This document shows, in pieces, positions 10,461-36,254 of a stretch of DNA of 64,000 nucleotides. How positions within the stretch are numbered: the first letter of the stretch is position 1; each line of letters begins with the position of its first letter. Below the pieces are notes generated by a model that saw nothing but the letters and a program-made list of their open reading frames with translations, had not been told where the DNA came from and made no database searches. The stretch spans positions 105,423 through 169,422 of IMG/VR virus record IMGVR_UViG_3300042398_000969. One strand, given 5' to 3'. A program made the translations under genes and the position numbers. The stretch is from a virus.

Positions 10461-11645
10461 TTATGTTAAACCACCACTACCACTACCACCGCCTCCGGCA
10501 CAATTTCTTAATGCTGTTGATATTATATATCCATCGGTATCAATTTGTATTGCGTTAAATTGTCCATCATTTAGTGTGTTTATATTGTCTGTTGCTACAG
10601 CATACCATAAATTAAAACCATTAAATGGTTCATAATTTGTATTCGCATACACCCTAGTATATGAAATTGCAGCAGGTAGTGTTGCTCCAGTACTGAACCA
10701 TCCTGCTGATGTCTGATAGCCAGGGCTAGAACAGAATGTATCTATAGATGATTGACCACCGCTCCTAAAATACCCATAAAGTGGTGGTGATGTTGGGGTT
10801 GGCGTTGGTGTAGCCGTTGGTGATGGAACCCCAAGACATTGAATACCAACCTCCCAGAAATCATTTACTTCATTAGGCGGAGCTAAGGCCGGAGCTGTTA
10901 ATACATCAATATAATATGTTTTAGTATTATCATATGTGATTGATAATGTTATTGGCCCCATTGCTGTTGGATACCAATAATCCTGTGAATTATATCCAGA
11001 TGAATTACCAAACCATCCCGTACTTTCAAGAACTGTTAAAGATGTTCTAATTGAAATATTATTTGGTCTATCATTTGCAGTACATGTGAAATTAATTATT
11101 GAACCATTTGCTACTCCGGCAAAGTTTAATTGAATGTCATCATAGTTGTTCATTGTTGAGCCAGTGAACGTTCCCGAAACTGTAGAACCACAACCAGGTA
11201 ATGCTGTTGGTGTTGGTGTTGCTGTCGGTGTTATTGGTGTAGCAGTTGGTGTCACCGGTGTTGCTGTCGGTGTTACTGGTGTAGCAGTTGGTGGTACTGG
11301 TGTAGCAGTTGGTGGTACTGGTGTGGCAGTTGGACCAGGACCTGCTGTTGCTGTCGGTGCTGGAGTTGCTGTAGGTGCTGGTGTTGCTGTTGGACCAGGG
11401 AACCCAGTAACTTGTATATTTTGAGTGGTACCACTACAAGCCCCAACAGGTTCTACTTTAAGCCACGTTTTACCATCAGTTATTCCTGTTATTGTATAAG
11501 TTGGGTTAAATAATGACACTGCCACATTACCATAATTTGTTAAAGCAATGCAATTGGTATTGTTACCTTCACATTCATAGAATTTAACAGATGTTATACC
11601 TAAACCTATTGTTGGACCTAATCTTACTGATGCTATATATGCCAT
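10461..11645 (-). CDS. Pro/Thr-linker virion adhesin-like protein
   Basis: N-terminal beta domain, PTATP repeats, two Cys-containing domains, Gly-rich C-terminus. Confidence 0.65.
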   Translation of the reverse strand: MAYIASVRLGPTIGLGITSVKFYECEGNNTNCIALTNYGNVAVSLFNPTYTITGITDGKTWLKVEPVGACSGTTQNIQVTGFPGPTATPAPTATPAPTATAGPGPTATPVPPTATPVPPTATPVTPTATPVTPTATPITPTATPTPTALPGCGSTVSGTFTGSTMNNYDDIQLNFAGVANGSIINFTCTANDRPNNISIRTSLTVLESTGWFGNSSGYNSQDYWYPTAMGPITLSITYDNTKTYYIDVLTAPALAPPNEVNDFWEVGIQCLGVPSPTATPTPTPTSPPLYGYFRSGGQSSIDTFCSSPGYQTSAGWFSTGATLPAAISYTRVYANTNYEPFNGFNLWYAVATDNINTLNDGQFNAIQIDTDGYIISTALRNCAGGGGSGSGGLT

Positions 11646-11649
11646 ATGT

Positions 11650-11657
11650 TATAAATA
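11650..11657 (-). promoter_or_regulatory. TATTTATA late-promoter-like motif (representative copy)
   Basis: Same coding-strand motif at 13864, 14544, 26513, 33880, 36248, 46260, 59145, 60686; TATTTATT variant at 36221, 57166, 63817; all just upstream of starts. Confidence 0.7.
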
Positions 11658-11669
11658 TTCTTATTTAAT

Positions 11670-12314
11670 TTAACGATTAGTGTTATTTAGAAAATAGTTC
11701 TTATCGTTTGACAAAAACTCATTAACGCTAAATGTTGTTATTGTTTCCGAGTTTGGGTTATTTTGAACTTTATTTATCATTTTTTCGGTATGTCTACCGT
11801 TTATACCATAATTTCCTTGAACCAAGTAATCACCCAATAAAATAAAATTTGGATCATTTCTTAAATCCTTCTCTTCAAAATCATCATTAATTTGTTTTTT
11901 ACTATAACCAATTTTTTTATGAATTATATTATCAGGTTTAAACTCGTTTTCAACCATTTCGTCATATATTAAATTTGATGGCCTTTGTTCATACCACGTA
12001 ACATCGACTAAAAGATTATATTCATTTAACCCCATATTCATTATAAAATTTAAATCATTTTCAATTTTTAAATCTGTATGGTTTCCACCAACAATACACA
12101 TATCCAAATCCCACGTGTTGTTAAAGTCAAATAAAACTCCACCCATTAAGTACATATCATATTCTTTTATAATCATTGATTTAACATATAAATTAAATAA
12201 AAAATCATAAACTTTTTGATATGACGGTCTTGTCCAATGACTTGTTGTTGTTACAACCCCTCTTTGAAAAAAAATACTATCTTTTAAATTTGCTACTTTA
12301 TTAAATGTGCTCAT
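11670..12314 (-). CDS. Pol-beta-superfamily nucleotidyltransferase-like protein
   Basis: hG[GS]-x8-DxD pattern YLMGGVLFDFNNTWDLDM, plus a third Asp in LVDV. Confidence 0.6.
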   Translation of the reverse strand: MSTFNKVANLKDSIFFQRGVVTTTSHWTRPSYQKVYDFLFNLYVKSMIIKEYDMYLMGGVLFDFNNTWDLDMCIVGGNHTDLKIENDLNFIMNMGLNEYNLLVDVTWYEQRPSNLIYDEMVENEFKPDNIIHKKIGYSKKQINDDFEEKDLRNDPNFILLGDYLVQGNYGINGRHTEKMINKVQNNPNSETITTFSVNEFLSNDKNYFLNNTNR

Positions 12315-12325
12315 AATTTATATTT

Positions 12326-13858
12326 TTAACCACTATATCCTCCGGAACCTCCTCCAGAACCTCCTCCAGAACCTCCACTGTCTGGAACTGGTGTTGCAGT
12401 TGGACTCGGTGTTGATCCATCGCAAGGTGAACATCCTGTATCTAATATAGTAAATACCGGTGTACTATAAACAACCGATTTATAGTTATCTTTTGCAATT
12501 ACCTTCCAACAGAATGTGTTTAAGAACGAATCGTTAACTCTAAACGTACCATTAATTCCAATTGTTGGTAATGTATCGGACCATACTGTTACACTATAGG
12601 ATGCATTATCACATCTCACACCATCCATTTTATATTTTTTTGGCGTTGCATTACAACTTGAACAATCACCATATCCTTGGAACATTGGTTGACCTAAAAC
12701 AAACGGTCCAGAATCTGTAATTTGATATCCATCAAAACCTTCACTTGGGTCTGTAATTACAAATTGTGGTCCTAGATTTTTATTAATGGTCATACATCTT
12801 GGATTCCCAGCAACAACGCCGTTTTCATATAATTGTATTCCATATGTTCTACCGGTGGTCATACCTAATAGCGAATATGCTATAATATTTTCACCCGTAT
12901 CACAAGTTACACCGCTATATCCAGTTATTGTGAAACCAGTAAATGGCGGGTCACAAGCAGCACAAGGATTTGCACCAGCTACTGGTGAAACACCATCTAA
13001 ATTATATGTATAACCCGTAACATATTGTGTTTGGACTGCAATGATAGATAAACATGAATTACCAACTTGATATACCGTTCCTTCTGTTAACTGTGTTGAA
13101 CTTCTTGCTATTGCCACGCCACCATAATTTTGACCAAAACCACAAGGATCTAGTGGATTTGAAAGTACGTATGATGTCGATGCTGGATTTTGCATTGATA
13201 ATGTTCCAATATTTGCTAAAGTATCACAACCAGGTATTTGTATTGGTGCACTAAATCCAGTTGCAGTTATTGCTGTATATGAATATCTCATATCATTACA
13301 GTCGCCCATTGCGTAATAATAATATGATGGATCAATAACAACATTTGTTGTTGGTGTTGGTGTTGGTGTTGATGTTGGTATCACTGTCGTTGCTGTTGGT
13401 GTAGGAGTTGCTGTTGGGTTAGGTGTTGGCGTTGGGCCAATAACAACAGTCGCTGAACCACCAGAGAAATCGCAATTAGGTGTAGGGCTAGGTGTTGGAC
13501 TAGGTGTTGGTGTTGGTGCAATATATACTGCGCTACCAACATTAGGAAAATAACAATAATTTATACAGTTATCATAAACTTCAGCCTCATTCGTATATAT
13601 ATTTTCTATAACGTAATTAACATCACCGGTATCTCCAGTATATGTTAATTTAAACCAATATTGTGTATCAAAAGATGCGTCTGTAAAAATAATAGGATTT
13701 GTGTTATAGTCTCTACTTGAACTATTAGGATACAAAGAACCATAAGACGTGTATCCTGTTGCTATAACAGAGTCATCACCAGCAGTTTTACCTGTTTTAT
13801 ATGATAAGGTAAAAGCTTTAGGTGAATTAATTCCATATAATCTTATGTTTAATCCCAT
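12326..13858 (-). CDS. Cys-rich Pro/Thr-linker virion protein
   Basis: N-terminal domain, PT linkers, NCDFSGGSATVV module, three Cys-rich repeats, (GGS)n tail. Confidence 0.65.
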   Translation of the reverse strand: MGLNIRLYGINSPKAFTLSYKTGKTAGDDSVIATGYTSYGSLYPNSSSRDYNTNPIIFTDASFDTQYWFKLTYTGDTGDVNYVIENIYTNEAEVYDNCINYCYFPNVGSAVYIAPTPTPSPTPSPTPNCDFSGGSATVVIGPTPTPNPTATPTPTATTVIPTSTPTPTPTTNVVIDPSYYYYAMGDCNDMRYSYTAITATGFSAPIQIPGCDTLANIGTLSMQNPASTSYVLSNPLDPCGFGQNYGGVAIARSSTQLTEGTVYQVGNSCLSIIAVQTQYVTGYTYNLDGVSPVAGANPCAACDPPFTGFTITGYSGVTCDTGENIIAYSLLGMTTGRTYGIQLYENGVVAGNPRCMTINKNLGPQFVITDPSEGFDGYQITDSGPFVLGQPMFQGYGDCSSCNATPKKYKMDGVRCDNASYSVTVWSDTLPTIGINGTFRVNDSFLNTFCWKVIAKDNYKSVVYSTPVFTILDTGCSPCDGSTPSPTATPVPDSGGSGGGSGGGSGGYSG

Positions 13859-13891
13859 ATTACTATAAATACAATAATTAAAAATTTAAAT

Positions 13892-13919
13892 AAAAAACCC
13901 CTTTAAATAAAGGGGTTTT
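13892..13919 (-). terminator. Intrinsic terminator (possibly bidirectional)
   Basis: AAAACCCCTTT-N-AAAGGGGTTTT inverted repeat with flanking A/T runs. Confidence 0.8.
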
Positions 13920-13951
13920 AATAATATTAAATTTAACCTTTTTTTAATTTA

Positions 13952-14527
13952 TTAGACTATCACACCGCCACCACAAGTGTTATCTACATTACATTGGTTC
14001 ATTACTGACTGAGCAACACCATTTAAACCTATTTGGAACATATATCCAGAAGTGTGATAATACCAACCAGCACTTGCATAATTTGAAGGTGATGCTATAT
14101 TTTGTGTATACATAGTACCCTGTAATGATGTTAGATTATTTAAATTAGCTTCAGTTATATAGAATGTAGTATATGATTGTAAGTTATTGTAACCTGAACA
14201 CGCATTAGTACAGTCTTGGTATGGACCTTGTGCTTGCATTCCCGTTAATGCTACACCAGACTCTGTTGCTGTTGGCGTAGGTGTTGGTGTCGGAGGAGCC
14301 ACAGACCAAGACTGAGTTGTTGAGCATGTTCCAGTACTAGCTATTGTACCACCCGTTAATGTTTCAAGCGTTGTGTTTATTGTATAACCTGTTGTTAATT
14401 GTGATTTGGTAACACCAGTGGCCAACCAGTGTGCTGCTCCAGCGCTAGTTGTACCTGAAATATTAAAAGGACCAGCAACAAATGTTGCGCCTGTATAACT
14501 TGGACTTAGTGTGAATGTAATTTGCAT
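13952..14527 (-). CDS. Small two-domain Pro/Thr-linker virion protein
   Basis: N-domain AGPFN..LATGVTKSQL paralogous to 14573-18700; C-domain GWYY..FQI..G paralogous to 10461-11645. Confidence 0.65.
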   Translation of the reverse strand: MQITFTLSPSYTGATFVAGPFNISGTTSAGAAHWLATGVTKSQLTTGYTINTTLETLTGGTIASTGTCSTTQSWSVAPPTPTPTPTATESGVALTGMQAQGPYQDCTNACSGYNNLQSYTTFYITEANLNNLTSLQGTMYTQNIASPSNYASAGWYYHTSGYMFQIGLNGVAQSVMNQCNVDNTCGGGVIV

Positions 14528-14572
14528 TGTTCTTCTTTTTTAATATAAATATCTGTTTATTTTGTTTTTTTT

Positions 14573-17500
14573 TTATACTTGTGCACCACCGCCGCCACCA
14601 AGACAATCATTACATGATGTCCATACACTTGAATATGATCCATCCGTTAAATGTGTCGCCTCTTGATCACATGTAGTACCAACATAATAATCTACTTGTA
14701 AGCACACATTATTTACTTTAACAGCTTTAGTTCCACCTAAGAATGCACTAACCAATAAATCTGGTGATGTCATATATCCAACTAGATTATTTGAACAATT
14801 AATTACTTGATATTTGTAATATGATGCTGGTTCAGGTATCGCTGTTATACCACTGTTTACCACACAACCATTTGCGTCTGTAACCTCTAAACAATACCCA
14901 TATGTTGTTAAATTATCTACATTGAATGTTGTACCAAAAGTTGATGTGCTATATGTTCCAACTAAAGTTCCACCACATGTTGTATATGGTGAACTTGTGT
15001 CAGCATATAATCTATATGTTTTAGGGAATACACCACCACTTGATGTTAATTCTAAAACACCTGAGCTTGGTGAAGCACATGTTGGGTATGTAATAATTGT
15101 TAACGACGCAGATTGTGCCGTTGGTTGGCTAATTCCTTGACCATATGATGCCACACAATTATTACCATCTTTAACAGATATTGTATACGTATCTGATATT
15201 AAATTATTAAATATCTTTGGAGGATAATAATAATTGTAACCATCAATTGAAACTTGTCTAGGTGATGTTCCGCCAACTAATGTTGTCACTTCAATAAAAC
15301 CATTTGAACCACCATAACAAGAAACATTACCAACATCCACTATTCCAAGCGCTGGTGTAGATACTGTTAAGTTATATGATACAATTGCAAAACAACTATT
15401 ATTATCTAAAACTTGTATTGAATGATTACCACTTGGTAAGTTATTAAAAGTATGTGAAAATTTAAATGCTGTTAACGCTGAATATGAACCACCATTACTA
15501 CTAATACAAAATTTATATCCTGAAGCATTTGGTGTTCCACCGCTACCCTGAATTGTTAATGATCCATTTGTTGAATTGTAACAAGTTGGAAAAGATGCAC
15601 TAGTAATAGTGCCAGCCACCGCTGACGGTATAGTTACGGTTGCTGAATATGATTGTTCACAACCGGCACCATCTTTAATAAAAATACTATATGTACCGCC
15701 ACCTAATGATGAATAAGTTACTGGTAAGTTTGCATATGTTCCACCAGAGCCAAGTTTTGCTTGATAACCAGACCCAGATCCTCCAGATCCACTAGAAACA
15801 CCAATGGTGCCTGTTCCCGCATTACAATCTGGATTTGTAACAGATATTGTTGCATTCGGAGCTGATTTGGATAATAACACATAATCTATGGCCACACAAC
15901 CATTACTGTCTTTAGCATATAAAGTATATAATCCTGTACCTAAACTACTAAAAGTTCCGCTGGCTTGATAATTTGAACCATCTCTTGAATATGTAAAACC
16001 ACCCACACCGCCTGAACCTGAAGCTGTTATTGAACCATTTGTACCATTCCAACATGTTGGATTTGTACCAGATACTGATATAGATACCGCACTTGGTTGT
16101 GTTACTGTTTGATTATATGTTTGAACACAACCCGCGCCGTCTTTAATATATATTGTGTATGTTCCCGCAGATAATGGGTTGGAGTATGTAACTGGTAAAT
16201 TTGCATAAGTTCCACCTACTCCGTTTTTAGCTTGGTATCCTGAACCACTTCCTCCAGTTCCATCACTAACCGTGATTGCACCTGTTCCACCACCATTACA
16301 AGCTACATTTGTAATTGAAAAAGTTGCATTAGGTGCTGATTTAGATAAAGTTGTTGCCGCTGAAGTTACACAGTCATTTGCATCCTTAATATAAATTGTT
16401 TTAGTCCCAACGGTTTGCCCAGTAAATGTTGCACTAGATTGATATGTTAAACCATCTGAAGAATATGTGTATGGTGATGTACCACCTGTAGGAGATGCTG
16501 TAACGCTACCATCACTACCATTATAACATGTTGGATTTGTTGATGAAGATATTGAACCAAAAAGTTGTGTTGGCTCTGTTATTGTTACAGAATATGTTCT
16601 AGAACAAGCAGATTGATCAATAACAGTTACTGTGTATGTTCCAGCAGTTGGTACACCAAACGTTGCTGGTAAATTCTGATATTGAAATGCACCATAATTT
16701 ACTTTTGCTTGATATGTTCCACCGTTACCACCACTACCATTTGAAATTGTTATTGAACCGCCTCCATTTTGATAACATGGTAAATTTGTTTGTGAAATAG
16801 TTGCACTTACTTGTGTTTTATTTAAACCGGTTGTATTTGTTCTAATACATCCACTAGCATCTTTAACATATGTGGTATATGTACCATTTGTTAAACCTGT
16901 AAATGTTAAACCAGATTGATAATTTGAACCATCTATTGAATATGTATATGGCGAAACACCACCACTTACACTAGATAATGTTATTGAACCGTTTGAATTA
17001 CCATTACAAGTTGGTTCTGTACCTGTAGCAGTGAAACTAATAATTGCAGGTTCTGTTATCGTTAATGATGTTAATTGACCAACTTCATTATTTGAATCTT
17101 TAACATATAATGAATATGTTTGTGCTGTTAAACCTGTAAATACGTTACTTGATTGATAGGTAGTACCATTTATTGAATATGTATAACTACCTGAACCACC
17201 ACTTGGACTAGTTATTGTTATTGTACCATTAGATCCTCCATTACATGTAACATTTGTTGAAGATCTAGATGCTGTTATAACAACATTGGTTATATTGATA
17301 GTTATAACCACATCAAAATATAAACCTAAAGCATCAGTTGATCTAACTTTAATTAGATATGTACTTTTTGTTTCATAATCAAATACTACTTTAGATTTTA
17401 AAACATTTCCAGCAATAGTAAAACTAGTATAATCTGGATATGATGAAGTATCTACAAATGAATATGTAAAAGTATCACCCGCATCAGGATCTGCTGTTGA

Positions 17501-18700
17501 AAAAGTACCAATTGTTGTACCAGTTGCAACATTTTCAGATATTGAAGATGATGATAAATCAATTCCTGTTGGAGCCTCATTAACACTAGTTACGGTAACT
17601 GAAACAAGACCATCATATGTTAATCCACCAGCATCTGTTGTTCTTATATTTAATAGATACGAACTTTTTGTTTCAACATCGAAAACTTCTTTTGATGTTA
17701 ATTGACCGCCAGAACTTAAATTAAAACTATTATTGTCTGGATATGAACCAGTATTAACAAATGAATATGTAAATGTATCACCGGCATCTGGATCTAACGT
17801 TGATAGTGTACCAGCGTTTGTACCAATTCCACTATTCTCAGGTATTGTGCCAGATATGCTAATACCAAATGGTGCTTCATTTACGTTATCAATATAAATT
17901 GTAAATTGTTTATCAAAGAATTGACCAACACTATCGGTAGTACGAATTGCCACTGTATATGAAGTTCCTGTTTCATAGTTAAATAATATTGAGTTAACTA
18001 AAGTATTACCACTAGTAGTGAAAGGTGCAGAATTTACTATAGAATATGTATGGGCATCATTACTATCACTTGACGCTGTTGCTAAATAACCAATCACCGT
18101 ACCAATAGCTGAATTTTCGTTTATTCTATCATAACTTAATGAAAGATCTGTTGGTGCATAATTAACTGTTGTATCAATTAAAAATAAACAATTAGGTGTT
18201 GAAGTTGGACTCGGTGTTGGCGTCGCTGTTGATGTCGGTGATGGTGTTGGTGTAGGTGTGGCGGTTGAACTCGGTGTTGGAGTTGGTGTTGCTGTTATAA
18301 TATTTGTATCTATTCCAAAATCACAATTAGGTGTTGGAGTAGGACTAGGTGTAGGACTAGGACTTGGAGTTGGACTTGGAGTTGGACTTGGTGATGGACT
18401 TGGAGTTGGTGTTGGACTCGTTGTTGGAGTTGGTGTAGGTAATATAGTTTCATCAATATTTGATTGACATTCTGCAATAACCCTAGCATTTGTATTGTAT
18501 ACAATTATTTTAGTTGCACTATCTGGTACACTAACGTGTAAACCTAAATTTGATATTAATTCAGTGCGTGTAACACCACTAGCAAGAAATGATGTATCAA
18601 AATTGGTTGCAAGATTTGCAGCGTTAACTTGGTCATAATAAACATTATAAGGACCCGCGTCAGTACCAGAAACAATCTTTACATAAAACTTCTTTGCCAT
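14573..18700 (-). CDS. Large adhesin-like protein: N-domain, PT linkers, 3 cadherin-like repeats, ~10 SprB-like repeats
   Basis: Cadherin signatures ENxxxGT, DPDAGD, DYET, VNEAP; repeats TNxTCxGxSNGxITx..GGxxPYTYS..YxxYVKDxxxC. Confidence 0.8.
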
Positions 18701-18707
18701 CTATAAT

Positions 18708-18986
18708 TTATTTTCCGCAACCACAATCTGATTCATTATTTGTTGTGATTAACGATTTTGTTACACTATTAAAATAGTTTTTATTATTTTCAATGAAATC
18801 ATTCGCTTTCTCCATTAATAACTCATTTACTTGATCATTGATATAGCTAATGTACATCTCATCATTTAAAGTAAATAGTTCTCTAACCATAACTTTAACA
18901 CCATTAATTGTAAATAAATCATTTATATCAATGGTATAACCGTCATTTGTGTATGTTAAAATTTTATTTGTTATTATTACTTCCAT
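18708..18986 (-). CDS. Hypothetical protein with C-terminal CGC motif
   Basis: 92 aa, ends SDCGCGK, tightly coupled to flanking genes. Confidence 0.7.
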   Translation of the reverse strand: MEVIITNKILTYTNDGYTIDINDLFTINGVKVMVRELFTLNDEMYISYINDQVNELLMEKANDFIENNKNYFNSVTKSLITTNNESDCGCGK

Positions 18987-18987
18987 A

Positions 18988-20712
18988 TTAAACTACTTGA
19001 CCTGTACAAGGATTTATTGTTAAGAAATTATTGTTTGGACAACCACTATAAATTGTTTCATTATTAAGTTTTAACGTAACCCAGGTTACGTTAGTGTGAC
19101 ATTGTCCATTTCCAAAACCAAGATTTACATTTATTGGTGTTGCACAAACTAATGCAAAACTTATATTACCACCAGTTGATGATGCTGCAATATCTTGTGC
19201 TTGTTGCGTTGTTAGTGTTAATGAGTTATATCTAGCATTACCACTAGTAACCCCAGGAGGATAATTAAATTGATCATTTGACCCACCAGTGTTACTTAAA
19301 TAAACTGTACCTATATTAATATTATTACCTCTTAAATAAAAAGTTGCAGCATTACATGTGTGTCCACCAGGACAAGGTCCTAATGTTGGGCTATATTGAA
19401 CAATAAATTCCATATTAGCCAAACAGTTTACTACTTCAGTTAATTCAGGTGTAATTGTTGTATCTAAAGCGCAATCAATAGTTGCTGTAGGTGTTGGACT
19501 TGGAGTTGGTGTTGGACTCGTTGTTGGAGTCGGTGACGGTGATGGGCTAGGACTAGGCGTTGGCGTTGGTGTAGCCGTTATAATATTAGTATCAACACCA
19601 AAATCACAATTCTCGGTAGGAGATGGTGTTGGTGTTGGTGTCGCTGTTGCTGTTGGGCTCGGCGTTGGGCTAGGAGTTGGTGTTGGGCTTGTTGTTGGAG
19701 TTGGCGTTGCTGTTATTATATTAGTATCAATACCAAAGTCACAATTAGGTGTTGGGCTAGGTGTTGGAGTTGGTGTACTAGTTGGTGTTGAGCTTGGTGT
19801 TGGTGTTGGACTAGGACTTGGGCTAGGTGTTGGGGTTGGTGTGGCAGTAATAATATTTGTATCAATACCGAAATCGCAATTAGGTGTTGGACTCGGTGTT
19901 GGAGTTGGTGTACTAGTTGGTGTTGAGCTTGGTGTTGGACTCGGTGTTGGTGTAGGTGTAGCTGTAATAATATTTACACCAACGTTAATATCACAATTAG
20001 GGGTTGGACTTGGGCTCGGAGTTGGACTAGGACTAGGTGTTGGGCTCGTTGTTGGTGTTGGTGTTGCTGTAATAACATTAACTCCCATTCCAAAGTCACA
20101 ATTAGGTGTAGGGCTTGGAGTTGGTGTAGGACTAGTTGTTGGTGTTGGCGTTGCTGTTATAATAATAACACCAACGTTAATATCACAATTAGGGGTTGGG
20201 CTTGGAGTCGGTGTTGGTGTAGCTGTAATAATATTTACACCCACACCAAATGTACAATCATTGGTCGGTGTAGGAGTTGGTGTTGGTGTGGCAGTAATAA
20301 CATTTGATGTTACTTGAAAAGTACAATCAGATGTTGGCGTTGGTGTTGGGGTTGGCGTTGCTGTAACAACATTAGTATTAACACCAAAATTACAATTTGC
20401 TGTTGGACTTGGTGTTGGTGTAGGTGTGGCAGTTGGACTTGTTGTTGGTGTTGGGGTTGGTGTTGCGGTTGGTAATGGACAGCTACCCAAATTAAGATTT
20501 ATTGATGTAACACTACTTGTCCCATTAATTGTCCATCCAGTATTTGGTGAATCACTTGTTGTTGTATTTCTAGGTTCTCCACCATATGGCCATGGATTTA
20601 TTGTCCAATAGTCACTACCATTCCATCTAACATTACATGTAATGCCACTAAGACTACCTTGCCAAGAAGGTTTTCCGTTATAGTGCCCGTTATATGTAAA
20701 GGTTGTTAACAT
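18988..20712 (-). CDS. Repeat scaffold-like virion protein (9-10 Cys-strand modules separated by Pro/Thr/Ser linkers)
   Basis: Tandem xxC[DNT][FI]xhxxxhhTAT modules alternating with (PT/PS)n; Cys-rich C-terminal domain. Confidence 0.75.
19480..20470 (-). repeat. Coding tandem repeat (Pro/Thr linker + Cys-strand module)
   Basis: GTTGGT/GTTGGA hexamer-rich DNA on the + strand with recurring CAATTAGG module junctions. Confidence 0.9.
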
Positions 20713-20733
20713 TTTTTTATTTTATTTTTAAGT

Positions 20734-23700
20734 TTAAGGACACGCACCAAGATAACATGCAACACTTAGAGTTATTGTATCACCACTATTAATTACCACT
20801 CCAGTTATTTGTGGGAATGGATTAGATGTGAAATATGATGTATATGATGGACTTGTTGATCCATTTTTATATATGAAAATCACACCACAATTTCCGTTAC
20901 CTGGTAAATTGGTTGTAACATTACATTGGATTGTATTTGTTGATCCATAATTAATACCACCAGGATTTGTTTTACCACCAGCTAGTGTTGATGTTAATGG
21001 GAATGTAGATGGCCCATTTAATGTGTTCATAAATGTACCATTAATACCAACATCATTTAACGTCCCATTACCACAATCATTGTTTCTAACCGTCCAAATT
21101 GATGTTGGTGGATTAGTTGCTGTTGGTGTTGGTGTTGGTGTTGAAAACGAAATATCAACACAGAAATCATCAGCTGCTGTTGGTGTAGGTGTTGCTGTTG
21201 GCGTTTGAGTAGGTGTTGCTGTTGGTGGCACCGGAGTCGCTGTTGGACTTGGGGTTGGTGTTGGAGTCCTAGTAGGTGTTGGTGTAGGAGTTCTAGTTGG
21301 TGTAGGTGTAGGTGTTTGTGTAGGAGTTGGTGGCGGTGTTACTATTGGATATGACCCCACACAAGTATATGCCGCAGCACCGGTACAAACATTTGAATAA
21401 TTTCTTAGTAAAGATCCTATTGATGGTACTGTTGTACAAGCAATATTATCAGTGTAATATTGTTGCATTGATGAACCAATAACCTCAAAACCAACATATT
21501 CATGTTCTACTAAAGCTAAATAATTAGAATTACCATTAAAGGTTATTAAATTTGTTGGTTTAGTTCCTGCTACATTTATGTTATAATACATATTAATGTT
21601 ACAGTAATTTAAATCAACGGCGGTTACTTCAATTAGTTCTCCTTTCTCTGTTATAATATAATCACCAGTGTCATAATAATCAGATGGATAATCACAACAT
21701 GGCTCTATTGGTGTTTCTGGTTTTATTTGTAAAAATTCTGGTGATCTTGTATCAAAAACATAACCACTTCTTTTTGTGACCTTGCCCGTATTTTCGTTAA
21801 CATCTTTATTTGTATAGATTCTAAATTTAGTTGTTGGTAAAACATCAAAAACAACTGTTGTACCACTATTTGTAACACCACTAATTACACTAGTTTTAAC
21901 GGAACCTAGTGAATCCATATCATGTATTGTGTATGTTGTATATGTGTATGAAAAAGAATAATTGTTTGTTGATTCAGCAAAATCAAACGCACTACTTGAT
22001 AGTGATGAGCATGAAAGATAATTTGCGGATACAACTACATTTCCATTAGAAAGATCTTTAACAGATCTCTTTACTAAAGTACCTGCAGTAATATAATTTT
22101 GTATATCAGCCGATGTTGTTGAACTATTAATTGTTGCGCCGCTTACTACTAAAACTTTGGTATCATGTTTTAAACCATAATTGTATGAATTTCTATATTG
22201 AACCCTTGGATGTATAGTAAAACCAGTATTAACAACAATTGGTTGATCCGGTACTTCTGTTGGAAATTCAACATATTGTAAATTCAAACCATCAATTCTC
22301 ACTTTTTTATCACAGTTAGCCGCATCAGTAAATAATAAATCTATAACCTCATCTTCATACACGTTTGATATTTTAAATTGACATGTATTCCCGCTAACTT
22401 GTGCAAAGGTTGTATCGGTGTATACTGGGTTATATCCAGAAAATGCATTTATAACCGGTATTGAGTTTCTTTGTACATAAATTCCCCAACCATATGTTTC
22501 ACCAGATTGGACAGTAGCACCAGTAATATTAACAATAATATCAGATTTTAATTTACATGCGGTAGATCCAGTATAAACTGGGTGTAAAACACCATCTGGA
22601 CAAACTGTTGTGAATTCTAAATCTAAACTACATTTTGGTAATGAATAGTTATAATCAGCATCAAAATAAAAATCTAAATATCTTTTTTCTGAACAGTCTG
22701 AATTGCTATGTGCAATAAATTTAACCTTTTCAATACCATCATTATCAGTAAAAAATTCATAAGATATTAATTGTGTATAACCAGAACAGTTAACGCCACA
22801 ACCGTATGTTACACCACTATATGGTGATACACTTGGTAAGTGACCAGCAACCGGATCGTTATATGTTGAATTAATTTTATTAACTAAGTTAATAACAGCT
22901 GTTCTCCAAAGCGTTTTTGTTGTTGAAGTATTTAATTTAATCCAATTTTTATAATCACAAATTAAAGGTATGCTTGTCGATGAACTACTTAAAACACTGC
23001 AACTATTTGTTGCGGTATAACCAGTATCAAATAATGTACTCCCAGTTATTTTAACTTGTGATGTTGTTCCACTATATTCAACACCGTCAACATCCATCTT
23101 TAATGTGAATGTTACACCAGTAAGATACATTAAACCCCTAAGATGATCTGGTTCACCAACAATGGTTTCCACATCTTCTTCAATAAAGGTTTCAAAGTCT
23201 GGATAAAGATTTTCAACTATCTCAATTGGTTTACATGGTTTTCTGTATGCATATTTAGGTCTTGCAAATATATTATTTTCAATTAAGTTACCACCCATCC
23301 ATAATGTTGTTGATGGAATAACTTGTTCTAACACATTTGACCAATATGGGCTCATTTGATTTACGAAATCAGTTGAGTCAATCATATCATATGGTGTATA
23401 TCCTGAAGATATTAATTGATTAATATAATCTTGATAAACATCTTCTAGATGAATATAATTTTTTTTGTATTTTACTACATTTGAATTTATAACTTGTTTA
23501 GAAAACGTCATCTCAAGGTACTCAGCAAAACTGGTTTGATCTTGAACCTCTAAACTATTTTTTCCGAAAACAACTTCTAGCTCTCTAGATTTTCTCCAAA
23601 TATCATAGTTACTTGCATTAGCTGGGCTAACAAAGACGCTAATATTTTTTCTATTTAATATTAAACCGGTACCAGTTAGATCATCAACAACTTGACTTTT

Positions 23701-25587
23701 GACATTATCAATTTTACTTTCTAATGTATAGCCATAATCTAATCCTGGGAATGTTCTGTATATGTCAAAAAACTCTTCACCATATGAATATGGTTTTGAT
23801 TTTGTTAATATTGTTTTTGTTCTACCTGTTAAAATAAACTCACCATCAACAAATGTACCACTAGAATTATCTGTATCAATCATATCTGAAGATCTATGAT
23901 CTAAAGTAACATCGTGCCAACCAGATCCCATTTGGAAAAATATATTATCCTGATTTGTTGTTGGTGTTTTAGGTAAATAAGTGTCAGTATCAATTGGGTA
24001 GTCAGTAGTATTACTGAACGTTGTTAATCCTGTTACAGCAGATAAACTATATGTGTAAGTTGATGGATTAAATGTTACTTTATTATTGAATGAAACATTA
24101 TTAATGACCTTAAATAAATCATCCTCAACTGATGTTTTTGGAATGGCGGTTTTTACACTATAAACATATTCGTTTATTTTAACCATTGGATCTGGAGCAC
24201 CAATAAATTTTAAGTAAAATTCAATACAGCTTCTAGTTCCTTTTGATTTATATATAAATGCTAGGTTAACTAATAATCTTCTATAAAATTCCAACTCAGC
24301 ATCAACTAAATTTTTACCAATGGATGAACCATTATAAACCGATTTAGATGCTTTATATAATTCTTCTTCTAATGATTTTTGATCAAATAATTTAATGGTA
24401 TTTAAACCTAAAGTATTTGCTAAGTTTTTAAGAAAAACATCAGGTATATTATTAATAGCATCATAAGAAACATTTCTCATGTGTGCTATGTTATCAATAT
24501 ATGATTTTACCTTATCAAAACTTTGACCATATAGTTGAAATATTTTATCAATTTTTTGATCTTCAGTATCAAACTCAAATAATTGTGGTGCAACTAAAAA
24601 CCTTGTAACTAAGTTTGATTTATAATTGTCAATTTCTGTTGCTAAATCATTTAATTTAGTTAAATAGTCATCAAAATTTAAACCTGTTGTTTGTGGATTC
24701 CAACCATCTTTAGAAACAGGCCATTCAGCTGTTACATAAATTAAATCTGTTCTTGTTTCATCTAAGCTTGTTCTTGGAACCTTAAATGATGATTGAAATA
24801 TTGGATATGTATCTCTGTTTAATAGGGTTTGTTCCAATTCATCTAAACCTAGATAAAATTCTTCAACAACAGAGTCGTTTGGTCTAATAATATAACTTGT
24901 AGAATATGTTACCCCAGTAAACGGTTTGCCATAAACTTCTAATGAAATTGTACTATCTGTGTTTGGTTGAGTATATTTTGAAATATTGTACGTTTTGTTA
25001 TCAATAACGATTGAATATTTGCTATATGATGAATATAAATTTCTAATTTTATTTTCAACTGGTAATAAATTATTTCCAGTCAATTCAGATAAAACTATAT
25101 CAAATGGATTAAAGAACTTACTTGCTTTGGTTGTAAATGTTGTTTTATCACTTGTAGCACTGTAAACAATATTCTCGGCTGTATAATTTGTTGTTGAGGA
25201 TAAACCTTCAGAATCAACATAAATGGCAGCAGGGTAGTTTTTAACAATTCTACCAATAGAAACTCTAATACGTTCTCTAAGAGATCCAAATAAAGATTTA
25301 GAACCCTCTGTTTTATCAGAGTTAAATCTTATTGGTCTTTTTTCACCAGTAGATTGCTTAACTGTTGTTGGAACATCATTTTCTATTTTAAGATCTTCTA
25401 ATGTTAGAAAATCAGAAAATGGTGCTGTTTTGAAGCTTTTTGCGTCTTGCTCAGGTATAACTCTATCAAGAGCAAAATTGGTATTAGTTAATTGACTAGT
25501 ACCGTCAGTAATTTGTCTTCCAACAATACTGTCGCTAAAAGTTTCATATCCACTAGCAGCCTGACTTGGTACTTTTCTTGTTGCCAT
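20734..25587 (-). CDS. Large baseplate wedge/tail protein (P2 gpI/T4 gp7-like core) with a C-terminal PT-linked domain
   Basis: NIPDVFLKNLANTLG and IYKSKGTRSCIEF resemble the tail-I KGT motif; located in the structural block. Confidence 0.6.
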   Translation of the reverse strand: MATRKVPSQAASGYETFSDSIVGRQITDGTSQLTNTNFALDRVIPEQDAKSFKTAPFSDFLTLEDLKIENDVPTTVKQSTGEKRPIRFNSDKTEGSKSLFGSLRERIRVSIGRIVKNYPAAIYVDSEGLSSTTNYTAENIVYSATSDKTTFTTKASKFFNPFDIVLSELTGNNLLPVENKIRNLYSSYSKYSIVIDNKTYNISKYTQPNTDSTISLEVYGKPFTGVTYSTSYIIRPNDSVVEEFYLGLDELEQTLLNRDTYPIFQSSFKVPRTSLDETRTDLIYVTAEWPVSKDGWNPQTTGLNFDDYLTKLNDLATEIDNYKSNLVTRFLVAPQLFEFDTEDQKIDKIFQLYGQSFDKVKSYIDNIAHMRNVSYDAINNIPDVFLKNLANTLGLNTIKLFDQKSLEEELYKASKSVYNGSSIGKNLVDAELEFYRRLLVNLAFIYKSKGTRSCIEFYLKFIGAPDPMVKINEYVYSVKTAIPKTSVEDDLFKVINNVSFNNKVTFNPSTYTYSLSAVTGLTTFSNTTDYPIDTDTYLPKTPTTNQDNIFFQMGSGWHDVTLDHRSSDMIDTDNSSGTFVDGEFILTGRTKTILTKSKPYSYGEEFFDIYRTFPGLDYGYTLESKIDNVKSQVVDDLTGTGLILNRKNISVFVSPANASNYDIWRKSRELEVVFGKNSLEVQDQTSFAEYLEMTFSKQVINSNVVKYKKNYIHLEDVYQDYINQLISSGYTPYDMIDSTDFVNQMSPYWSNVLEQVIPSTTLWMGGNLIENNIFARPKYAYRKPCKPIEIVENLYPDFETFIEEDVETIVGEPDHLRGLMYLTGVTFTLKMDVDGVEYSGTTSQVKITGSTLFDTGYTATNSCSVLSSSSTSIPLICDYKNWIKLNTSTTKTLWRTAVINLVNKINSTYNDPVAGHLPSVSPYSGVTYGCGVNCSGYTQLISYEFFTDNDGIEKVKFIAHSNSDCSEKRYLDFYFDADYNYSLPKCSLDLEFTTVCPDGVLHPVYTGSTACKLKSDIIVNITGATVQSGETYGWGIYVQRNSIPVINAFSGYNPVYTDTTFAQVSGNTCQFKISNVYEDEVIDLLFTDAANCDKKVRIDGLNLQYVEFPTEVPDQPIVVNTGFTIHPRVQYRNSYNYGLKHDTKVLVVSGATINSSTTSADIQNYITAGTLVKRSVKDLSNGNVVVSANYLSCSSLSSSAFDFAESTNNYSFSYTYTTYTIHDMDSLGSVKTSVISGVTNSGTTVVFDVLPTTKFRIYTNKDVNENTGKVTKRSGYVFDTRSPEFLQIKPETPIEPCCDYPSDYYDTGDYIITEKGELIEVTAVDLNYCNINMYYNINVAGTKPTNLITFNGNSNYLALVEHEYVGFEVIGSSMQQYYTDNIACTTVPSIGSLLRNYSNVCTGAAAYTCVGSYPIVTPPPTPTQTPTPTPTRTPTPTPTRTPTPTPSPTATPVPPTATPTQTPTATPTPTAADDFCVDISFSTPTPTPTATNPPTSIWTVRNNDCGNGTLNDVGINGTFMNTLNGPSTFPLTSTLAGGKTNPGGINYGSTNTIQCNVTTNLPGNGNCGVIFIYKNGSTSPSYTSYFTSNPFPQITGVVINSGDTITLSVACYLGACP

Positions 25588-26501
25588 TATTCGGTAATAT
25601 CGTCAAAGTTTAATGTTTGGTCTATATCAGTTTTTTCCTCACGAATCTCATATAATGTTTCGTTAAGATCATCTTTAACCTCATAAAGATTGAACTGTTT
25701 ATAAATCGCGTTATTGTTGTTCTTGTCATAAATTGTGTAAATACCAGAATTTAACGCCTTACTTTGATTACCATAAAGTGCATGTGCAAGTGTTGATGCA
25801 TCATGTTCAACCATTTCAACCTCAACTGTAGTTGGGTTAAAGTAACTATTGGTTAAAATAATGTTTTGAGATGGTTGGCCAATAAATGGTACTACATTGG
25901 GTCTATTGCTAGGTGCAGAAGACGGTGTAACTGTTAAGAATACCAAATTGGTTGGTGCATCTGAATATCTATATCGAATTGCTTTTTGTGTTGTATTTGT
26001 TAAGTTTGTTGTTACTGGTTCACAATAAAAAGAAGATGTTACTATTCTGTAAAAATTAGGTACTTTTTTATTGTTTAAGGAATCAATATATTCAACCCTA
26101 TAACCCACCAAACCTTGTGGAACAAATTTATTTGTATCTTCTGTTGAAACATTTCCCAAATCAATAACTAATCCTCTAACTGAAGGTAATGAAGCTAAAA
26201 CACCACAATCTGTGATTTCAGTTCTAACCTGTTTTGGTCTAAGATGTAATGTGTAGATACCTAAATCACTAAAAACATCACTATTTAGTCTAAGATTGTA
26301 TAATCCACCTAAAATTTCAGTACCTGAAGTACCGCCAGTTTCTGAGTTATGAAAAACAGGTGTCAAAATATCAGCAGAATCCAACTTTGTTAGTGTTGGT
26401 TCTGTTGTTGACGCTCTATTAGCCACATAGTGAAGTAGAATTTCTACATCTTCTGGGGACACATCTGCTGGTCTTATTGTTCCGTAACTTCCTACTGCCA
26501 T
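25587..26501 (-). CDS. Putative virion structural protein
   Basis: 304 aa ORF in the structural operon, preceded by TATTTATA. Confidence 0.6.
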   Translation of the reverse strand: MAVGSYGTIRPADVSPEDVEILLHYVANRASTTEPTLTKLDSADILTPVFHNSETGGTSGTEILGGLYNLRLNSDVFSDLGIYTLHLRPKQVRTEITDCGVLASLPSVRGLVIDLGNVSTEDTNKFVPQGLVGYRVEYIDSLNNKKVPNFYRIVTSSFYCEPVTTNLTNTTQKAIRYRYSDAPTNLVFLTVTPSSAPSNRPNVVPFIGQPSQNIILTNSYFNPTTVEVEMVEHDASTLAHALYGNQSKALNSGIYTIYDKNNNNAIYKQFNLYEVKDDLNETLYEIREEKTDIDQTLNFDDITE

Positions 26502-26525
26502 GTTCTTTTAATTATAAATATAATT

Positions 26526-27467
26526 TTATTGTTTTTTCACCAAGAAAAATCCATTTCCGTAGATATCTAATTCACCTATATTATCAATTTCACCTAATCT
26601 TAGGTTAAATTCTGCTACACCCAATTTTCCTCTTTCAACAAAAATATCAGAATACACCAACGGTTCAGAAACAAAACCAAGATAATGTTCATTTCTGGTT
26701 AATTTTTTAGTGAATTGACTTTCAGATGCAAAAGTTGCTGTGTTGCCAGTAATATAGGTAGTTCCATCTGATAAATCAAGGTAAGTTAGTCCATCAATTT
26801 CGTATTTATCACAATTGTATGATGTTCCCTCAATTGTGATTGTTGTTCCAGTAACACCACTATATGTGCTACCACCATATAATTTTTTTTCAATTTTTCT
26901 ACTTTTACCTAAAGCTAAAAATGTTGTTGTTCCAGTAAAAGAATTTCCAGAATAATCATAATTGTTATTATAATTCTGAGTTCTACCAGATTGTAGATAG
27001 GTTTCACCACTAACATTAAAATATGGTAATGTTGTACCTGTATATGTGAAAGTCGCTAAATTAGTGGGATTGTTGGTGGTTAACGGTAATTTAATTTGTT
27101 TTGTCACCGTTTCTGTTTTCCATGATGCTACCATGGTGATAGAAACATTTTTAAAACCTGGTGTTGAATATGTTTTTGTTTTTCCACTCAATATACTAAT
27201 AGCTTCTGCTGGTGATCCATCACCCCAATTAATTGTGAATGTGGCGTCAATAATTCTTTTTAATTTTATATTACTAGCTGAGTTATATACTGTAAGGGTG
27301 TTTCCAGTATTGGCGGAATAAACAAAATTGCATAATTGTTCTGCTTGTTCAATATCACCATCAAAACCAACCATAACACCCAACTCATCAGCTTTTGCTT
27401 CTAAAAATAATGGTAGGTTATATGTTAAACCGGTTTTTCTTAATATTTCGTATTTTAACTTTTTCAT
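26526..27467 (-). CDS. Putative virion protein with a PKD-like domain
   Basis: INWGDGS..KTYSTPG..VSI PKD signature. Confidence 0.6.
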   Translation of the reverse strand: MKKLKYEILRKTGLTYNLPLFLEAKADELGVMVGFDGDIEQAEQLCNFVYSANTGNTLTVYNSASNIKLKRIIDATFTINWGDGSPAEAISILSGKTKTYSTPGFKNVSITMVASWKTETVTKQIKLPLTTNNPTNLATFTYTGTTLPYFNVSGETYLQSGRTQNYNNNYDYSGNSFTGTTTFLALGKSRKIEKKLYGGSTYSGVTGTTITIEGTSYNCDKYEIDGLTYLDLSDGTTYITGNTATFASESQFTKKLTRNEHYLGFVSEPLVYSDIFVERGKLGVAEFNLRLGEIDNIGELDIYGNGFFLVKKQ

Positions 27468-27468
27468 T

Positions 27469-28296
27469 TTATAGTTTTATTGCACTTCCTCCTCCGAAAT
27501 CACAATTACCTCCAAGCCCTCTTATTATTGTATATGTATGTTCAGGTCTTTTAAATAAAACCCTGTAGTAAACATTTTCCTCTGGATTTGTATTAACGTT
27601 GGGATTCATTTCATAAAACATAACTGGATTTGACGTTGTACCAACTCTTGTTCCATCAACTAATCCAGAATTATTTACTGTTAAATCTCTATTTAAAAAT
27701 CTAAGAATTGATCCATCTTCAGCATTGAAAAATCTAGCTGTCATATAAAATGTGGTACCCGTATAAACTGTATTATCTGGAAACCAGAACAAATACATAT
27801 TTTCCGTATTTCTATAATTGTTTCCGTTGAATACTGGAATAAAAATATCATCCCTCAAATTCATATCAAAAACTTTCTGACCTAACGGAATTGATAAATT
27901 TTTTGCAAAAACTAATTTTTGTGTTTCTCTATATGGTGTTGTATAAAATTCTAACCTAAAAAAACTATTAACAGTATGTTTTAATAGTTTAACGTTTTCT
28001 TTTGGACTAATCCCTATTAAATTATAATCCAAGCCATTTGAATACGTGTTACCACTATTAAGAAAGTTAAAATAAAACCAGATATCACATTGTAGTGTTT
28101 GAACACTAGATATTGTAACATTATATGGCTCATGAATATATCTTGTTGTCTCGTAGTTTTCAATAGGGTTTATAATACTTTTTAAAATATTATCTTGCTG
28201 TTCTAAAAAATTCTCCTCCCAACCAGCATTTGTTCTAAATTCTGTTTCTGGATTGAATACCAAAGATTGATCAATATTTTTATATAATATTTTCAT
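27469..28296 (-). CDS. Putative virion protein ending in a Cys-strand module
   Basis: Structural operon; C-terminus GNCDFGGGSAIKL. Confidence 0.6.
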   Translation of the reverse strand: MKILYKNIDQSLVFNPETEFRTNAGWEENFLEQQDNILKSIINPIENYETTRYIHEPYNVTISSVQTLQCDIWFYFNFLNSGNTYSNGLDYNLIGISPKENVKLLKHTVNSFFRLEFYTTPYRETQKLVFAKNLSIPLGQKVFDMNLRDDIFIPVFNGNNYRNTENMYLFWFPDNTVYTGTTFYMTARFFNAEDGSILRFLNRDLTVNNSGLVDGTRVGTTSNPVMFYEMNPNVNTNPEENVYYRVLFKRPEHTYTIIRGLGGNCDFGGGSAIKL

Positions 28297-33933: not shown

Positions 33934-35763
33934 TTAATATGTAGTCGTTCCTAAGGTTTTAACTCTAATTTGAATGTCTTTATTAGGGAATCTAATTTGA
34001 AATATTTGATTTGATTTCATAAACACCGTCATATCTGATTGTGTGATTAGTCCACTTGTTGCGTCTAGTGTTTGTGAAACCTTAGCTGATGAATACTCAC
34101 CGCCGGTTTTATTGTACACCCTAACATCAATAACGTTAACGACACCTGGAACATCATTTACTTCTTTCATTAATTCCCCAACAAACAATGGGTCGCCCAT
34201 TTTTCTTTTATCAATTGAGAAATAAGCTGTTGTTGCACTAATAATTTCACGAAGAACTTCTGTTTGGTTTTGATTTTTGTCTAAAAGTATGTCTATCTGT
34301 AATCCAAGATCAATTACCTCACCGCTAACTATATCAATATAGTCATTTACCATTCTGTATTCAGAAAGATAAGAAACTATATTTTGTTTTAATGTGTTAG
34401 ATACAACATCTGTTAAATTACCATTTTCATCATATGATAATAGTTTGATTCTCACTTTATTGTCTTCCTCCATTACATTAACTTTAGCTGGAGCACCATA
34501 CGTTGATGGCATGGTTTCAATCATAGACTTATAATCATTTAATGTTACCGCTCTATTTTGTGCAGCAAAATTATATGCTATCATACCTCTTAATTCTTCC
34601 AAAACTGGTTGATCTGATCCACCAACAGCCGGTGTAATATTTGTAACAACTAAAGATTGTAATGTCTGGTCATTAAAAGATTGGTTTGGTCCGTTTATAC
34701 TAAAATCAATATTTTCAATATTATTTATAACACCAACACCCAAATTACTTTCTTTACCTCCACCAATTCTATATTTGATGAACAATGTACTATCTTGTTT
34801 AGGTATTGCACCTAATGACATATTGTTTAGATATGTTGATAAATTAACTTTTAAATTATTTGTAATGTAATTATCTAAGTTGTCTAATGGATCTACGTTA
34901 CCAGAACCGAATGTAACAAAGAAGTATCCTTCTGGTGTATATTCGGTAATAAACTTATTATTCACTCTAATGTATTCACCGGCCTTAAAATTCTTTCTAT
35001 CAGAATTAGCTGTTTTACTAGGTACGAAAACTTTATCTTGAACTAACGATTGAACTTCATACCATTTATTAGCCTCTGTAATAAATTCACTATTTGTTGG
35101 GTTTCCGGCAAAAGAAGTACCATCTTTATGTATTATTGTTGTAACACCAAGTATATTTCTTTCTGGTAGGTATATTTTCATAAATGGTTTTTGGTCTCTT
35201 TGACTTATAACCTTTCTGAATATTTTTGTTACCCCATTCACTACTGGCTCTCTCTTTGTGATTGTATATGATATTATCTTGTTGTTTCCATCGCGATTAG
35301 GTATTTTCAATCTATTTGATTCTCCCTTTTCATTAAATGGATTAGAGAAATCAATATCAGATATTGTTTCAAATATTTGTCCACCACCAGATACTTGTGC
35401 TCCAGCTCTTAATATACCTTCATATCTATCATCATCTTTATCACCCTTTACTGGCACATTAATACTAAAATCACATAATGCAACCGAAGGTCTAGACCCA
35501 GGTATTCTAATACCATATGTTTTAGCAATATGAAATAAAGATTGCTTTTGTTGTGCAAAATCAAGCATAGTTTCTTGCCAAACTCTATCAATATGAAAAT
35601 GTAGATTATCTGCAATCGCAGCGTTTAAGTCTAACAATACTGAATATATTGAAGCGTCGTTAGTATTCTGAATTAATTCAGGATAATATTCTTTAGTAAA
35701 GTTTACTAGGTCCTGTCTTAAACCAGCAAAGTCTCTGTTGGTATATGCTATTTTTTTGCTCAT
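33934..35763 (-). CDS. Baseplate wedge subunit (T4 gp6/baseplate J-like)
   Basis: YTNRDF, AVGGSD, AQNRAVTLNDY motifs; adjacent to the gp25-like gene. Confidence 0.88.
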   Translation of the reverse strand: MSKKIAYTNRDFAGLRQDLVNFTKEYYPELIQNTNDASIYSVLLDLNAAIADNLHFHIDRVWQETMLDFAQQKQSLFHIAKTYGIRIPGSRPSVALCDFSINVPVKGDKDDDRYEGILRAGAQVSGGGQIFETISDIDFSNPFNEKGESNRLKIPNRDGNNKIISYTITKREPVVNGVTKIFRKVISQRDQKPFMKIYLPERNILGVTTIIHKDGTSFAGNPTNSEFITEANKWYEVQSLVQDKVFVPSKTANSDRKNFKAGEYIRVNNKFITEYTPEGYFFVTFGSGNVDPLDNLDNYITNNLKVNLSTYLNNMSLGAIPKQDSTLFIKYRIGGGKESNLGVGVINNIENIDFSINGPNQSFNDQTLQSLVVTNITPAVGGSDQPVLEELRGMIAYNFAAQNRAVTLNDYKSMIETMPSTYGAPAKVNVMEEDNKVRIKLLSYDENGNLTDVVSNTLKQNIVSYLSEYRMVNDYIDIVSGEVIDLGLQIDILLDKNQNQTEVLREIISATTAYFSIDKRKMGDPLFVGELMKEVNDVPGVVNVIDVRVYNKTGGEYSSAKVSQTLDATSGLITQSDMTVFMKSNQIFQIRFPNKDIQIRVKTLGTTTY

Positions 35764-35764
35764 A

Positions 35765-36217
35765 TTAGATATTAATAATTACGAAGTCTGAACTAGAAAA
35801 AGCTCCGTTATTTGTTGTGTAATCGATTCTTATTTTAGCTGTATATGGTTTTGAGGCTGAATCGCTAACTCTAAACAGTCTAATATCCTCATCTTCACTA
35901 ATACTAGACCCTTCTGATGGATCTAATTCTGGGTTTGTTATTTTTATTGAGTTTATCTCTAAATTAGGAATATATGTTCTAATACTTTCTCTAATCTCAT
36001 CTTCAATACTATTATATGTAACAACATCATTCATATCAAAAATGTACTCATACAATCTAGTACCAAAATCAGGTAAAAAATACCTGCTACCCTTTCTTGT
36101 CAATAACAAATGAATCAAGTTAGCACGAATCTCTTCGTCTCTTGTTAGGGTCATTCTGGTGTAGTCACCTATTGTACTGTCTCTAAACGGAAAGTCTAAT
36201 CCATACTTTGTAGCCAT
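35765..36217 (-). CDS. Baseplate wedge protein gp25/GPW-like
   Basis: NLIHLLLTRKGSRYFLPDFGT.L..YIF; likely start MATKYG at 36217. Confidence 0.9.
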   Translation of the reverse strand: MATKYGLDFPFRDSTIGDYTRMTLTRDEEIRANLIHLLLTRKGSRYFLPDFGTRLYEYIFDMNDVVTYNSIEDEIRESIRTYIPNLEINSIKITNPELDPSEGSSISEDEDIRLFRVSDSASKPYTAKIRIDYTTNNGAFSSSDFVIINI

Positions 36218-36254
36218 ACCAATAAATATAAACAATACTAAAATGGATATAAAT

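Follow-up and report, generated by a model that had tools for sequence, protein, structure and literature searches.

In chaperone-usher pili, an incomplete Ig-like fold is completed by a strand of another chain: strand G is absent from the pilins, the donated strand is an N-terminal extension, assembly depends on a chaperone and an usher, and the products are linear fibres. Cellulosomal scaffoldins carry repeated docking sites on Pro/Thr linkers, with typed cohesin-dockerin interactions and adaptor scaffolds. Among phages, an extension of the Tuc2009 baseplate protein BppU completes the beta-sheet of the titin-like domain of the accessory adhesin BppA (PDB 5E7T; PMC4742702), trimeric tailspikes of CBA120, G7C and phiKp24 dock on folded T4 gp10-like domains (PMC9700779), and inter-chain disulfides occur in the fibre hubs of crAss001 (PMC10172136). 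Here, we analysed a phage gene cluster in which C-x-F strands on some proteins probably complete the N-terminal domains (N-domains, or sockets) of others that are made without strand A, giving an adhesin brush at the baseplate.

The window, a stretch of 64,000 nucleotides, is the end of a 169-kb virus record (G000) that is about half complete. It encodes a tail sheath, a tube and gp6- and gp25-like wedge genes (33934-36235), with the putative docking cluster downstream on the same strand. All ORFs named in the original prediction were found, on the minus strand, and promoter and terminator scans gave chance-level results only. Relatives of the window are uncultured IMG/VR contigs of up to 333 kb, no cultured phage relative was found, and together they represent a large, uncultured family of freshwater jumbo myophages. 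Two near-complete relatives encode bS21, as do Bacteroidetes myophages of compatible genome size and habitat (PMC9723584), which suggests a Bacteroidetes host for the window's phage; the half-complete record itself has no bS21 match, and the searched part of that paper's text does not describe the strand and socket proteins presented here. Outside the window, at about 34000-65000 of G000, a long run of genes between fibre genes looks by eye glycosyltransferase-, radical SAM- and other tailoring-enzyme-like, and Pro/Thr stalks could be substrates of such enzymes.

The scaffold (18988..20712, 574 aa) consists of an F-type N-terminal domain (20473-20712), nine V-class strands (20365-20397 down to 19579-19611), a tenth, diverged strand of the AT class (19444-19476) and a C-terminal domain. 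The nine modules and one diverged copy originally described, each set apart by Pro/Thr linkers, are thus present, as are all the copies described in 14573-18700, in 12326-13858 and at the C-terminus of 27469-28296. The 252 linker-isolated copies in related loci yield the module consensus [DN]-C-x-F-x-[VI]-x-[VT]-x-[VI]-[VI], in which Phe reaches 98%. With a profile trained on 114 modules from other lineages only, leaving out the window's subclade, the nine scaffold and two adhesin copies rank 1-11 of the 55,822 sequence windows in the 169-kb record (score ≥ 12), while each of 20 shuffled sequences gave 0-1 matches at that score. Lower scores on the same profile, 10.1 for the Gly-rich copy in 12326-13858 and just 3.2 for the module in 27469-28296, point to a separate class, and we take these two as putative strands because of their conservation, not their profile score. 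Modules are conserved throughout the family. Identical module peptides are written with different codons, indicating that selection acts on the protein, and the same peptide is found, identical, in both scaffold and adhesin. Within a genome the module sequence is homogenised, and among relatives the spacing between modules varies freely.

In the window scaffold, the Cys-to-Cys spacing is 23, 23, 23, 29, 35, 39, 45, 45 and 45 residues, so that the strand spacing (19444-20397) climbs steadily from 23 to 45 residues toward the C-terminus. Array recombination is evident in locus L112 and when the window scaffold is compared with L003 and L127. In each of these two close relatives, a 405-aa gene separates two scaffolds (L003:16804-18018, L127:11145-12362), and the window scaffold looks like a recombinant of the two scaffolds; the A-type gene was lost in L112 in a similar way. 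A 92-aa gene ending in two Cys (18708-18986) always lies between scaffold and adhesin and occurs only in the split-scaffold clade.

The adhesin (14573..18700, 1375 aa) begins with an A-type socket (18440-18700), followed by two V-class strands (18296-18328 and 18161-18193), and has cadherin and SprB repeats recognized by Pfam. A B-type socket (14300-14527), a short stalk and a small tip domain make up the 191-aa protein (13952..14527), which has no strand; the 394-aa protein (10461..11645), also strand-free, has a C-type socket (11397-11645; Cys25, Cys32 and Cys70), a stalk and two domains. The original prediction had grouped these three N-domains as related and noted a Cys near their end. Both observations held, as the A and B profiles match with a probability of 94% and C more weakly, and the late Cys is invariant (140/140, 115/115 and 120/120). 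The D-type domain (13565-13858) of the 510-aa protein (12326..13858), a distant homologue (E about 0.01), is without this otherwise invariant Cys, and is followed directly by a strand (13526-13558) and then by a GG-class strand (13445-13477). Finally, the conserved 275-aa protein (27469..28296) has a GG-class strand at its C-terminus (about 27472-27507); this strand, present in 12 of 35 distinct C-termini, was gained in a single subclade.

A profile search with the N-domain returned 1,151 clusters, with the domain N-terminal in 147 of the best 150 matches; no sequence match was found in the PDB or the Atlas. All 120 B-type homologues keep the Cys and none has a linker-isolated strand, at a median of 191 aa. 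Being small and strand-free, as expected of leaves, the 191-aa protein is a predicted terminal leaf. Most A-type proteins have no strand in cis either. B and C domains are internal, and without a C-x-F strand in cis, in the strand-poor relatives L087, L090 and L047, where few donors are recognisable. A 116-aa protein of L087 (6688-7038), made up of a socket-like domain and a single strand at the C-terminus, might be a minimal adaptor or the subunit of a head-to-tail polymer. We also noticed, in a strand-poor relative, one ORF of several thousand residues of almost pure Pro/Thr repeats, running from L057:15253 through L117 to L087:3141. Amid the adhesin genes of the window, a 214-aa gene (11670-12314) shows by eye a nucleotidyltransferase-like GG..DLD pattern and has no family match; it is missing from the closest relatives, and a similar gene follows the D-type gene in L130 (14580-15221).

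Fusions link the strand to the N-domain. All three internal N-domain copies among the best 150 matches are preceded by a C-x-F strand, about 8-14 residues before the domain. A targeted search gave two further strand/N-domain fusions (five in all) and many unfused orthologues, and in four unfused loci the strand is in the upstream gene and the next gene begins with the N-domain. The AlphaFold model of the fusion P0098 (pLDDT 89.9, pTM 0.83) is a seven-stranded Ig/FN3-like sandwich with the module as its first strand (pLDDT about 92), and it aligns across whole Ig/FN3 domains at Z of about 6, a match of arrangement only. Such arrangements are common, and the fold matches lie at Z 4-7; Foldseek at E ≤ 0.001 gave no match. 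On the same chains, the window N-domain starts to align 12-17 residues later than the fusion model (1ccz, 106 versus 94; 2dru, 116 versus 104; 1qr4, 100 versus 87; 5lsp, 670 versus 654), which suggests that strand A is missing. The N-domain is predicted to be a beta-sandwich without this part of a sheet. In the AlphaFold model of residues 1-142 of the window's A-type adhesin, the protein's own module is a paired strand (pLDDT about 70), in a cis arrangement and by a program that tends to put amphipathic strands into an open groove. C2-domain matches of this model extend across the module, which would fit a circular permutant with the module in the vacant position. Strands A and G of the FN3 topology begin at the same end and are adjacent, which would bring strand Cys and socket Cys close together and makes a disulfide between them topologically plausible. 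The original proposal of strand complementation is thus favoured by fusions, two AlphaFold models, fold alignments and the independent lineage described below, with the change that the strand would be the core strand A and not an addition to a complete domain.

We distinguish the strand classes V (with a large residue four positions after Cys), AT and GG. Across 33 loci, several partial and from related lineages, N-terminal C sockets are accompanied by a GG strand (12/12) and N-terminal B sockets by V strands (16/17). There is roughly one AT strand per A socket: AT is missing from all loci that lack an A socket (6/6), and the strict pattern detects it in 17 of the about 25 loci that have one, some copies needing a relaxed pattern. 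Every fusion, and every split in the podophages described below, pairs an A socket with a small-residue strand, and L112, with 10-11 strands, has strands and sockets on different proteins only. Three strand classes thus track three socket classes, in agreement with the expected co-occurrence of strands and N-domains across related phages. This suggests a pairing code, and the modules probably form at least three classes that are not interchangeable. Complex prediction of the window's A-type N-domain with a V-class scaffold peptide scored 0.24 and 0.27 (mark 0.32), which we take as evidence neither for nor against docking; the co-occurrence suggests that these two may not be cognate. The charges of strand and socket do not covary (rho -0.06), and among the top 120 there was no B-type fusion with a V strand. 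We considered the tenth module and the pre-cadherin strand as parts of adjoining domains and rejected this, since the same classes occur isolated or C-terminal and the cadherin begins after the strand.

In the original prediction, an anchored protein recruited scaffold and adhesins alike through the strands. The scaffold has no socket, its N-terminal domain belonging to a different family, so the same strand cannot recruit it. A likely anchor is instead a second split domain, with its strand on a conserved baseplate-region protein (20734..25587, 1617 aa) that is weakly gp7/P2 gpI-like and has a Pro/Thr stalk near its C-terminus. In this family, Tail_P2_I is matched in 4 of 15 members (best E 0.012), along with Baseplate_wedge and DUF2612, all weakly; three related Pfam families appear at E 0.004-0.05 in some homologues and none in the window copy. 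The stalk holds an isolated D-F-C-V-x-I strand (21139..21171), which we predict to be the first strand that the scaffold's N-terminal domain lacks. Where this type of domain is internal elsewhere, a hydrophobic-Cys-hydrophobic strand precedes it in cis (37/37); in the window's clade the domain starts at Met and the strand is absent. The isolated stalk strand is confined to loci in which the strand-less domain opens the following gene; the 24 other loci all lack it. The anchor motif is short and the scaffold split is one event; in the genome-wide score the anchor strand is not prominent, the second-domain strand profile being too short. The 1617-type protein itself bears 2-12 strands in many relatives, and the sister clade and most of the deeper branches have the V array directly on it, so that the window's clade appears to have moved the array to a gene of its own and re-attached it through the second split domain. 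The GG strand, on 27469-28296 in one subclade, likewise sits at the end of the 1617-type (gp7-like) core in other lineages. A third split is possible in L122-L125, where the gene for a 1000-aa gp7-like protein terminates in Cys-x and is followed by a gene that opens with an SprB-like repeat containing Cys.

We then picked sockets for the absence of a strand in cis and inspected their gene context. Two were in family members with strands in neighbouring genes, and one was in a smaller crAss-like phage. The muzzle-type tail(-tip) protein of this lineage normally continues into an adhesin part, with neither strand nor socket (about 31 proteins). In L129, L131 and L168, which form one clade, it stops in a C-x-F strand ten residues past the shared part, and an A-type socket opens the gene that follows. 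Here the strand/socket pair seems to stand in for a covalent linker. The fusions, the splits in podophages and the scaffold split are each confined to one or two clades and so represent few independent events.

We propose that the N-domain supplies strands B-G of an Ig/FN3-like sandwich and that each C-x-F module would be a free strand A, binding in trans. Insertion would complete the fold and bring the strand Cys, at the start of A, near the socket Cys in the F-G loop, allowing a disulfide lock after lysis. The gp7-like protein would be the root and hold the scaffold through the second split domain. The nine V-class strands of the scaffold would then take up 191-aa B-type leaves, and its AT-class strand the 1375-aa cadherin/SprB adhesin, whose two V strands could hold two more leaves. 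The GG-class strands of 27469-28296 and 12326-13858 would receive the C-type 394-aa protein and possibly the D-type protein. The product would be a multivalent brush at the baseplate of the virion, presumably for host binding, that is retuned via recombination in the arrays. The branched display originally proposed follows from this architecture, with the wiring corrected for the strand classes.

Alternatively, the modules could self-associate, between the chains of a homo-oligomeric fibre or within one chain, as small Cys- or metal-tied beta knots that stiffen the Pro/Thr stalk, while the N-domain binds a conserved virion protein. The strands are amphipathic, their sequence is homogenised within a genome, and about 11 V strands face a single B-type gene, all of which would fit. 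We nevertheless consider self-association unlikely, as it explains neither the fusions and podophage splits nor the missing strand A and the single C-terminal strands, and the module spacing varies freely among relatives. Docking might also occur without a class code and partly in cis, with A-type proteins capping themselves with their first strand or chaining head to tail into pilus-like or hyperbranched polymers. Self-capping is geometrically possible (Cys-Cys spacing 19-81 residues), as the cis model illustrates, an identical peptide is shared by scaffold and adhesin, and some proteins have one socket and one C-terminal strand (L087:6688-7038). The lack of a strand in cis in most A-type and all B-type proteins, together with the class co-occurrence, makes such uncoded docking improbable. 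Least probable, and in our view very unlikely, is that a six-stranded N-domain is complete alone and the strands bind a host protein or a modifying enzyme or serve as recombination handles. Internal copies without a strand do exist and array recombination is evident; against this, the codon differences between identical peptides indicate selection on the protein, and strand and socket turn up together in an unrelated lineage.

Completion of the N-domain by strands in trans would provide an assembly rule, open to testing, for the family of 1,151 protein clusters that lack annotation and for the region that varies most in abundant freshwater jumbo phages, and suggests how adhesins get added, multiplied and swapped with the baseplate unchanged. 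We put forward more tentatively, at somewhat less than even chances, that this is a portable, disulfide-locked, class-coded tag/catcher system, with at least three orthogonal strand-socket pairs and a second split fold, that builds hierarchical multivalent adhesin trees on the virions of widespread phages of Bacteroidetes and travels between the myophage and the crAss-like lineages. If true, a 10-residue tag and an 80-residue catcher of several specificities would be the natural equivalent of engineered tag-catcher pairs and might be redox-reversible.

Unlike in chaperone-usher pili, the missing strand maps to A and the donors are internal or C-terminal; neither signal peptides (by inspection) nor chaperone or usher families (Pfam, NCBIfam) were found in the cluster proteins. 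The scaffold resembles that of cellulosomes in its architecture alone, with repeated docking sites on Pro/Thr linkers, whereas here one partner would be an unfolded strand, the system is viral, and cohesin and dockerin have no Pfam or NCBIfam match in the cluster. With CBA120, G7C and phiKp24 it would share the hierarchical display of many adhesins at a jumbo-phage baseplate (PMC9700779), but the docking sites are predicted peptide strands on stalks and the adhesins have cadherin/SprB or small tip domains; a family-profile search gave no match to gp10-like docking domains or trimeric beta-helix tailspikes. BppU and BppA were not among the matches listed in the sequence and fold comparisons of the N-domain. 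As in Tuc2009, the predicted missing part lies on another tail protein; relatives of the window carry fused forms. The Tuc2009 donor is a 25-residue C-terminal hairpin, with one site per chain and no disulfide reported for it (PMC4742702), whereas we predict a single 10-residue strand A, in up to 9-16 copies per cluster on stalks, with Cys on both sides and several classes. A literature search of incomplete coverage found no published description of this strand/socket family. Strand complementation between phage tail proteins is thus already known from Tuc2009, while the multivalent, class-coded strand arrays and the Cys pair appear to be new.
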